From NCBI GenBank assembly GCA_964408285.1, contig CAYOYV010000001.1:160001-224000 (forward strand): a DNA stretch of 64,000 nucleotides. The letters are read 5' to 3'. The DNA is from an uncultured Nitrososphaerota archaeon (lineage in GTDB: Archaea; Thermoproteota; EX4484-205; JAAOZO01). Numbering within the stretch: position 1 is the first letter of the stretch; each line of letters begins with the position of its first letter. Position numbers and translations under genes: made by a program. Under the pieces are notes generated by a model. It saw only the letters and a list, made by a program, of their open reading frames with translations. It did not search any database and had not been told where the DNA came from. Shown here piece after piece: positions 43,050-44,720 of the stretch.

Positions 43050-44720
43050 AATCTGCAGATGCAGGTCGGATTTCCAAGCCGGATTTCCTGGCAAAGGCAG
43101 CTGAGATAAATGCGTAGAATGCGGGATTCGGAGCACCGGGCCAACTCTTGAATTCGGGATGATATTGCGCGGCAAAATAGAAGGGGTGTGTCCTAAGCTC
43201 CAGGATCTCAATCCTTCCATCATCGGAAAAGCCTGATGCGACATAATGGGATTTCTCAAGCATCGGAACATAAGTCCTATTCAATTCATACCTATGCCTG
43301 TGCCTTTCATAGATTTCAAGGCCCCTGTATATCCTATGTGCAAGAGTACCTTGTTTGATGGTTATCCTTGAGGAGCCCAACCTTTGGGTTCCGCCCATTT
43401 CAAGATTCTGATTCTGCTCTGTGGAAAGCCTGACGATCGGAACAGAGGTATGCGGGTCGATCTCTGTCGTATTCGCATCATCTAATCGAAGAACATCCCT
43501 CGCGAATTCGACCGCGGACAATTGAAATCCGAAACATATGCCAAGGAATGGGATTCCATTTTCCCGAGCTCGTTTCATAGCAATCATTTTGCCCACGGAT
43601 CCCCTGATTCCATACCCGCCTGGTACCAGCACGCCATGGCAGCCATCAAGCATCAAATCGGGATCTTTGGCTAATTCGAGTTCCTCCGATTCGACGAATT
43701 TGACCAACACCCTGACGCTCATTTTGCCGCCAGCATGCTTCAGAGCGTCCACAACGCTGATGTAGCTATCCTCGAGAGCCACATATTTCCCCACCAACGC
43801 AATCCTCACTTCATCTCTTGGATTGACTATGCCATCGATTGCCTCTTTCCAGGGTGTCCAGTTGGACTCGCCGCAGGGCAATGCGAGCTTTGCGCACAGG
43901 AGTGTGCCCAGACCTTGGGTCTCCAGATGCTTTGGCAGTTCGTATACGCATGAGAGATCAGTTGCGCAAAAAGCTGAGTCTCTTTGTATGGATGAGAAAA
44001 GAGCAACTTTGGACATCACTTCGTCATTCGGAAGGCCCTTTGATCTTACAAAGACCAAGTCCGGTTGGAGACCTATTCTCCTGAGCTCTTGGACGCTGTG
44101 CTGCAATGGCTTCGTCTTGTATTCCTTCGTGACCTCAAGAAAAGGGACGAGAGCAACATGGGCGATGAGAGTGTTTGAGCGCCCCTCTTCAAGTCGCATC
44201 TGTCTGATCGCCTCGAAGAATGGCATGCCTTCTATGTCACCTACTGTCCCGCCGATCTCGATAACTGACACATCGGTCTTTGAGGCCTGCCTTATCCTGC
44301 TTATGATCTCATCCGTAACGTGCGGTATGATTTGTACGCACTTCCCTAGATACTCTCCTCTTCTTTCCCTTCGGATTACCTCGAGATATACTTGCCCGGT
44401 TGTGATGTTGCTGCTTCTGCTCAAGGTCGTGAGCAAGAACCTTTCGTATCTTCCTATATCGAGGTCTGTTTCTCCTCCGTCTTCAGTTACAAAGACCTCT
44501 CCATGAACAAATGGATTCATGAGCCCACTGTCATAATTCAAGTATGGATCGATCTTCACGGCCGTTACGCGAAAGCCTCTAACCTGGAGAACCTTGCCTA
44601 TGGAGGCGGCGATCGATCCCTTCCCAAATGCTCCCCGGGCTAGGCCGAGTCTGAGCTAAGAACGCCACCAGTCACGAAAACATACTTAGTCCTCTTGGAC
44701 TTCTCCTGTCCCCCTTCCAT
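43015..44720 (-). CDS. pyrG: CTP synthase in two exons (44720-44651 and 44627-43015); 560 aa when spliced
   Basis: Exon 1 reads [23 protein letters not shown]; exon 2 continues (V)[10 protein letters not shown]...KIDPYLN...GEVFVTEDGGETDLD, GICFG, RHRHRYE, QYHPEF. Confidence 0.95.
44628..44650 (-). other. 23-nt bulge-helix-bulge (tRNA-type) intron in pyrG pre-mRNA
   Basis: UUCUUA-GCUC-AG|A-CUCGG-CCUAGC-CCGGG-GAGC-AU|U-UGGGAA: 4-bp central helix, two 3-nt bulges and flanking stems; removal restores the frame and [10 protein letters not shown]. Confidence 0.88.

Follow-up and report, generated by a model that had tools for sequence, protein, structure and literature searches.

The minus strand of a 64,000-nucleotide (nt) stretch of DNA from an uncultured Nitrososphaerota archaeon (assembly GCA_964408285.1, contig CAYOYV010000001.1, positions 160,001 to 224,000; hereafter the window, meaning this whole stretch) encodes pyrG, the gene for CTP synthase, which is interrupted near its 5′ end by a 23-nt insert in the form of an archaeal bulge-helix-bulge (BHB) intron. 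We conclude with high confidence that pyrG of this archaeon carries a 23-nt BHB intron that is spliced by the tRNA-intron endonuclease EndA and the RNA ligase RtcB into an mRNA for the full CTP synthase. The insert is a genuine and conserved intron of a coding region, very probably spliced by EndA and RtcB, and at least three clades have BHB introns within the first 60 pyrG codons, at four sites in all. These results add pyrG as a host gene to an established kind of intron, and indicate that uncultivated Thermoproteota have more such mRNA introns than published work records.

The gene is divided between two reading frames of the minus strand. Exon 1 (44651..44720) begins with an ATG at 44720 and encodes 23 residues and the first base, G, of a valine codon, and exon 2 (43015..44627) supplies the UU of that codon, continues as GKGSIAAS... 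and ends with a stop codon at 43017-43015. In the list of open reading frames (ORFs), these appear as a 514-amino-acid (aa) pyrG ORF from a GTG at 44559 (MKIDPY...), whose frame is open upstream and was read from 44625, and as a separate 26-aa ORF in a different frame (44720-44640). In silico excision of the 23 nt from 44650 to 44628 gave 561 codons between stops and 560 aa from the ATG, with the exon junction creating G^UU (Val; here and below, ^ marks a cut or junction) and joining MEGG...GGVLSS to GKGSIAAS.

The frame of exon 2, which was submitted to the family scan in place of the spliced protein, matched the NCBIfam CTP synthase model PRK05380 with an E value of 2.2e-204 and 680 bits (cut-off 308) over positions 17-530 of 534. 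Positions 1-16 are absent from exon 2 and are provided by the N-terminal motif of exon 1, which aligns with the N-termini of 27 uninterrupted related PyrG loci (GGV.S[SG].GKG unbroken). The intron lies at codon 24, 70 nt from the start codon and inside the conserved GGVxSSxGKG ATP-binding loop. A candidate archaeal TATA box (TTTATTA, 44745..44751, minus strand), recognized by eye, ends 25 nt upstream of the ATG; its placement suggests a leaderless or near-leaderless pyrG mRNA, in which the BHB would form ~70 nt into the transcript.

The complete motif, comprising an exon helix (h), a central helix (H) between two bulges and an intron stem (h′), occupies 44621..44662 of the minus strand, where the minimum free energy (MFE) fold and an explicit parse coincide. 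The exon helix pairs 44662-44657 (UUCUUA) with 44626-44621 (UGGGAA) over 6 bp, two of them G-U; the central helix pairs 44656-44653 (GCUC) with 44633-44630 (GAGC) over 4 bp; the 3-nt bulges, on opposite strands, are 44652-44650 (AGA) and 44629-44627 (AUU); and the intron stem pairs 44649-44645 (CUCGG) with 44638-44634 (CCGGG) over 5 bp, closing a 6-nt loop (44644-44639, CCUAGC). Two 3-nt bulges on opposite strands with a 4-bp helix between them constitute a BHB in the strict definition, as given in Hirata 2019 (PMC6379350), and the flanking h helix on the exon side and h′ helix on the intron side that are required in addition are both present. Folding of 44615-44668 (minus strand) returned the BHB alone as the MFE structure. 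With cuts placed between the second and third nucleotides of both bulges (AG^A and AU^U), the intron is ACUCGGCCUAGCCCGGGGAGCAU (44628..44650, minus strand; strict parse L=23, h=6, H=4, h′=5), its removal mends the frame, and its loop holds an in-frame UAG (44640..44642), as read from both the ORF list and the sequence. An earlier note on this DNA had claimed this BHB anatomy with its coordinates, the removal of exactly these 23 nt, the G^UU valine codon and the 560-aa product; the minus strand is identical to the sequence it gave, and fold, parse and spliced frame all bear it out. Scans of the window with Rfam and tRNA models gave no match at all, and a blastn-short search of the genome for further copies of the intron found none beyond chance matches of 11-15 nt.

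The insert belongs to the DNA of this organism. Logan contigs from runs X2 (record 2, 44275-45000, 0 differences), X3 (record 4, 44200-45000, 1 difference, at 44856) and X4 (record 9, 44200-44766, 0 differences) each cover the intron without a gap; these runs are labelled as sediment metagenomes and represent three separate studies. A contig from run X5 was not counted as it stops 13 nt past the intron, and no intron-less pyrG join was present among the run contigs covering the stretch. The insert is therefore genuine DNA, carried by contigs from three studies other than the one at hand. The genome was assembled from a metagenome in 46 contigs, which might invite an explanation by an assembly or sequencing error; yet the X2, X3 and X4 contigs span 44628-44650 without a gap and differ from the window elsewhere by one letter at most, homologous inserts occur in related genomes and in 6 metagenome contigs, and, to the extent that contigs can show it, the chance of an artefact is negligible. 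The window genome (G000) comprises 1.82 Mb, is estimated to be 93.7% complete and has a single pyrG match.

Relatives of the archaeon carry either an uninterrupted gene or a BHB intron of another length at the same position (site A). The class, identical in our collection to its order, is represented by 26 species genomes, which were searched with the uninterrupted PyrG of G009. A pyrG match was obtained in 21, and the five genomes with no match are 70-88% complete. Alignments began at residue 1-3 in 18 of the 21 matches, which are uninterrupted, and at residue 12-13 in G000, G002 and G004. The latter two, from another genus of the same family, are interrupted by 22 nt at an identical point (GCUC AG^A CUCGUC GUA GACGAG GAGC AA^U), with h = 3-4 and h′ = 4-6 in the strict parse of the 22-nt relatives, and removal of the insert restores the conserved junction and gives open frames of 561 and 563 codons. 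In G003 and G005 (genus g2), the remaining two members of this family with a match, pyrG is uninterrupted. PyrG identity to the window is 65-66% for G002 and G004 and 50% for G003 and G005. The 18 other class genomes and the 27 uninterrupted loci imply that the site tolerates no extra residues.

PyrG of genus g2 (G003 and G005; loci L020 and L021) and of family f4 (L022-L031, genus g6) is 46-50% identical to that of the window and reads S-G-[LI]-GKG at the loop, as against S-S-V-GKG in G000, G002, G004 and family f3. The class may thus hold two pyrG types, possibly through gene replacement, to judge from these sequences. Genus g6 also includes a second, partial pyrG-like stretch (G016:C2:1172-1756), which corresponds to query residues 352-542 and contains 2 in-frame TAG codons.

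Pattern scans widened the sample for site A. Among GTDB species genomes the site-A form occurred in two contigs only, labelled 'Nitrososphaerota archaeon' and 'Thermoproteota archaeon', and JGI metagenomes contributed 6 site-A contigs, all with 22-nt introns. The JGI contigs added two stem types (CCCGUC/GACGGG and UCCGGC/GACGGA) to those of G002 and G004 (CUCGUC/GACGAG) and of the window (CUCGG/CCGGG). Across 6 distinct aligned sequences, 91.7% of cells were paired, compared with 43-59% when the 3′ partners were slid by 1-3 columns, and three of the six intron-stem pairs had changed on both sides, against 0 in every slid control. Two pairs of the exon helix are often unpaired in the 22-nt forms.

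Several observations weigh against a spliced intron. The fold energy of the BHB (-15.3 kcal/mol) is unexceptional, with z = 0.52 and 133 of 200 shuffles equal or better. A count of BHB shapes of equal or better quality (h>=6, H=4, h′>=5, L 14-60) gave 46 in 3.64 million genome positions and 49 in a shuffled copy, a chance of ~46/(3.64e6 x 47) per position and length; given this lack of enrichment over the shuffle, the shape alone proves nothing. The place at which EndA cuts within the bulge was taken as background and is checked here through its consequences only. The central helix, whose 5′ strand belongs to the coding sequence (AGC UCA), is for that reason invariant among the 6 aligned sequences and gives no covariation signal; the sequences are moreover close kin, five of one genus-level type, and record few events. 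A search of sequencing runs for the stretch identified 12 DNA runs and 0 RNA runs that contain it, so that splicing is here deduced from DNA. Finally, a second pyrG may lie in the part of the genome that is missing from the 46 contigs.

What carries the argument is the coincidence of a BHB with the position and length that mend the frame, repeated in relatives with another intron length and another stem. A rival view is that pyrG is a pseudogene, broken by a 23-nt insertion whose BHB shape is coincidental. As DNA the gene is indeed broken, with a stop three codons into the insert; chance BHB-like shapes arise about once per 80 kb of strand; and the estimated completeness leaves room for another copy of pyrG. 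However, the 536-codon downstream frame is intact and still scores 680 bits as a CTP synthase, the frame is also intact in the sister genus at 65-66% identity, the insert varies in length (22 versus 23 nt) and in stem with the BHB and the exact repair retained, and no other pyrG was found in the genome, all of which makes a pseudogene very improbable. Three checks proposed in the earlier note gave results in its favour: the insert is real in DNA, present as it is in contigs of three other runs from different studies; the genome has one match and no intact second pyrG; and relatives are either uninterrupted or keep the BHB pairing through compensatory changes in an insert of other length.

Three further intron sites were found in pyrG of other Thermoproteota. 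A phylum sample of 401 genomes included 387 with a pyrG match, and the best 150 of 403 match rows were examined, which does not amount to a census; 13 loci with a missing N-terminus, or with extra codons containing stops, were chosen by eye, one of which ran off its contig. In nine of these 13 loci a BHB intron interrupts the GKG codons, at a point 8 nt further downstream than in the window (site B). A tenth, L079, was added from the GTDB pattern scan. These ten loci (L060-L063, L067-L071 and L079), from other classes of the phylum, have the form GUG GGG AA^A ... CCC[CU] A[AG]^A GGU, with introns of 21-28 nt and stems that differ through compensatory changes; half of the lengths are divisible by 3, and introns of these lengths would appear as an in-frame stop. 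The GTDB-wide scan for the site-B pattern returned 8 contigs, labelled Candidatus Culexarchaeum/Culexmicrobium (4), 'Methanomethylicia archaeon' (2) and 'Nitrososphaerota archaeon' (2).

The remaining three of the 13 loci contain two introns each, of 20-27 and 30-31 nt, at the codons for DP^Y and NP^Y (sites C and D), which enclose a 33-nt micro-exon. Site C and D loci (L064-L066 and L114-L121) belong to metagenome-assembled genomes (MAGs) labelled Nezhaarchaeota and share the exon context ACCC AU^A...GGG[UC] A.^A, in which the 5′ splice site itself generates an in-frame UAG. The GTDB-wide scan for site C returned 8 contigs, labelled Nezhaarchaeota/Nezhaarchaeales (4), 'Methanomethylicota' (1), 'Thermoprotei' (1) and 'Nitrososphaerota' (2).

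A PyrG tree was built from 27 of 42 loci, with midpoint rooting only; 15 were dropped, including all g2 and g6 loci, for want of an ORF >350 aa after the anchor motif. Each site corresponded to one clade in this tree, with support of 100/100 for A, 92/95 for B and 100/99 for C/D, and the A clade was sister to the uninterrupted family f3 (97/94). The topology fits at least three separate intron gains.

The genome was also scanned for other mRNA introns, with the criterion that excision at a strict BHB should join two frames broken in the unspliced DNA. This yielded 4009 loose candidates, 90 under stricter settings and 11 with bulge constraints; judged by eye, only pyrG and dnaG are convincing, and the remainder look like gene boundaries. 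The dnaG intron, which lies outside the window on the minus strand of contig C15 (C15:5526-5546; L083:1527-1547), is 21 nt long and in frame, reads GUGG AC^A GGGCC UAAC GGCCC CCGC AA^A with a UAA in its loop, and is situated between MNEEQVGPYFKYLVKLKFEAEGVVD and KHDVIGAVFGQTEG. The downstream frame matches the DnaG primase model NF003108 (E 6.5e-105). A dnaG match was present in 23 of the 26 class genomes, and an insert of 18-32 nt occupied the same site in all 22 loci examined, a count that leaves out one partial G009 locus at a contig end. The strict BHB parse holds in 17 of the 22; the other five (genera g2 and g3) are relaxed forms, in which either one of the 4 central-helix positions is unpaired or the inner stem is 3 bp long (L087 by eye). 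Compensatory changes accompany the differences between stems, with a switch between U-G and U-A in the central helix. In 7 of 20 parsed dnaG introns there is an in-frame stop inside the intron, and in the other 13 the first stop follows 39-45 nt past the 5′ splice site. cbf5, the established host of an archaeal mRNA intron, is one frame with no interruption in this genome (C6:38820-39788; TIGR00425, E 7.6e-104).

In silico, the same cut rule mends pyrG at site A (6 loci), site B (10), site C (3) and site D (3), and dnaG at 20 loci. In one way the view taken in the earlier note was too restricted: the site-A intron is not an isolated case, with three more pyrG sites in other Thermoproteota and dnaG interrupted across the class.

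The host encodes the machinery that the earlier note had expected to act on pyrG. Its genome has two tRNA-intron-endonuclease genes (PF01974; 105 and 68 bits), in the regions of C4:48740-48997 and C8:13446-13700, and one RtcB gene (PF01139; 561 bits). Both EndA paralogues match TIGR00324: the 194-aa protein aligns with the C-terminal half of the fused-type profile, which we take to be the catalytic half, and the 217-aa protein aligns with the N-terminal half and, weakly, with the beta-subunit model NF007085 (E 4.9e-7). Going by these alignments, the pair fits a two-subunit, (alpha-beta)2 enzyme. Published work ties this type of EndA both to relaxed substrates and to the splicing of cbf5 mRNA (PMC6379350 and, reportedly, Yoshinari 2006).

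tRNA genes gave a less orderly picture. ARAGORN reported 21 tRNA genes, 13 of them with introns, in this 93.7%-complete genome, along with oddities such as two 'SeC' genes, a Phe-AAA and a 1514-nt 'intron'. Many tRNA genes were probably missed owing to non-canonical or multiple introns. When the cut rule was applied to the tRNA introns, the best parse equalled the ARAGORN product in 4 of 12 and was convincing in 2 (Ala-GGC and Arg-CCG); the intron calls of ARAGORN look unreliable, which makes this a weak control of the rule.

We propose that the pyrG pre-mRNA would fold into a helix-bulge-helix-bulge-helix made of exon and intron bases, and that two-subunit EndA would cut it after 44651 and after 44628. 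RtcB would then ligate the exons, with the predicted junction ...AGCUCAG^UUGGGAAGG, to create the GUU valine codon and an mRNA for the 560-aa enzyme, and the 23-nt intron would be released, probably as a circle. Ribosomes on unspliced RNA would halt at the UAG of the loop after 26 residues. Stops of this kind recur: each of the 22 pyrG introns examined (A 6, B 10, C 3 and D 3) contains one in frame, a count that overstates independence as the loci are kin. Together with the stops in and beyond the dnaG introns, this suggests that translation from unspliced pyrG or dnaG RNA would be curtailed. For the pyrG intron, cleavage, ligation, circularization and any regulatory role are steps that we infer.

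A short insert with a stem-loop and a stop codon soon after the take-off point also resembles a site at which the ribosome bypasses the 23 nt by hopping or recoding, as in phage T4 gene 60, with the RNA left uncut. Bypass is very improbable: take-off and landing codons do not match, as the gap is preceded by UCA, and GGG, read in the frame of exon 2, by GCA UUU; landing on GCA would yield SS-F-GKG; the exact 3-4-3 BHB anatomy recurs in four other, unrelated codon contexts; and the host encodes the BHB enzymes.

EndA might instead cut the BHB and the exons be poorly rejoined, so that the element acts mainly as a cleavage or decay switch lowering pyrG expression and not as a constitutive intron. 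A BHB in the 5′ untranslated region (UTR) of Haloferax HVO_1309 does affect expression, according to PMC7714728, and the in-frame stop of every pyrG intron would silence unspliced RNA. As the genome's sole pyrG, however, the gene must give rise to some ligated mRNA, and exact repair of the frame over lengths of 20-31 nt at four pyrG sites points to selection on the ligated product; a mere switch is hence highly unlikely, and splicing to a full-length message is the preferred account.

The closest known system is the BHB intron in cbf5 pre-mRNA of Crenarchaeota, reportedly described by Watanabe et al. in 2002 and Yoshinari et al. in 2006. Like the pyrG intron, it is short, interrupts the coding region of an essential gene and is expected to engage the tRNA-splicing endonuclease and a ligase; its hosts likewise have a hetero-oligomeric EndA, its patchy spread implies gain and loss, and annotation miscalls the gene as frameshifted or a pseudogene. 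Unlike pyrG, which encodes a metabolic enzyme, cbf5 encodes an RNA-modification enzyme; the pyrG host is a small uncultivated sediment class of Thermoproteota, and the pyrG intron lies 70 nt from the start, in the ATP-binding loop. Splicing of cbf5 has been demonstrated by experiment, whereas that of pyrG is predicted here from DNA.

Archaeal tRNA and rRNA introns have the identical motif, as PMC6379350 describes it, and presumably the same enzymes; in pyrG the host RNA is a messenger, so that codons limit what the exon halves of the helices can be and ligation has to preserve the reading frame. The HVO_1309 element of Haloferax volcanii (Schwarz et al. 2020, PMC7714728) is, like pyrG, an mRNA substrate of the archaeal splicing endonuclease whose removal matters for expression, but its place is in a leader that is not translated, and its host is a euryarchaeon whose EndA is homodimeric, whereas the pyrG intron interrupts a codon.

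The earlier note knew of no BHB intron in pyrG, and none was found in the literature searched. According to Yokobori 2009 (PMC2738675), cbf5 was the one archaeal pre-mRNA with confirmed splicing; Schwarz 2020 (PMC7714728) names cbf5 as the sole further BHB intron reported and adds the 5′-UTR case; and a 2025 NAR paper (PMC12397907) cites three cbf5 papers only for mRNA introns. The full-text literature gave no report of a BHB intron in pyrG or CTP synthase, with subscription papers outside its reach, and nothing relevant on a dnaG BHB intron or on introns of Culexarchaeia.

For more than 20 years cbf5 was the sole archaeal protein-coding region known with a BHB intron, and a second and third host gene would alter that picture. 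Both pyrG and dnaG are essential, and the tRNA-splicing machinery would on this evidence serve mRNAs more widely. With four sites, each in one clade of the PyrG tree, the pyrG introns offer natural material for the study of intron gain. A systematic error of annotation comes to light as well: genes of this kind are labelled as truncated or as pseudogenes, which distorts metabolic reconstructions of uncultivated archaea and would here produce a false loss of CTP synthesis.

Eukaryotes splice HAC1 and XBP1 mRNA with IRE1 and a tRNA ligase or RtcB. There too, an mRNA is cut by a protein endonuclease at two stem-loops, its ends are rejoined by a tRNA ligase, and the reading frame and protein change; the difference is that the endonuclease is IRE1 and not EndA and that splicing is stress-regulated, and no homology is implied. 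A more far-reaching idea, which we consider doubtful, is that mRNA splicing by EndA and RtcB is a normal part of how uncultivated Thermoproteota express their genes, beyond cbf5, given the four pyrG sites with their in-frame stops and the dnaG intron kept throughout a class. It would fit either of two ideas: active insertion of introns into conserved coding sequence, for instance by reverse splicing and reverse transcription or by homing, or a checkpoint like that of HAC1/XBP1, through which the cell's capacity to splice RNA would govern how much CTP synthase and primase is made.

Downstream of pyrG in the window, its 3′ end overlaps convergently by 35 nt (43015-43049) with the 3′ end of a 464-aa FAD-dependent ORF on the plus strand (41655-43049), which by its sequence resembles a geranylgeranyl reductase. 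The same FAD-dependent neighbour adjoins pyrG in G009 (L005:180-1502).

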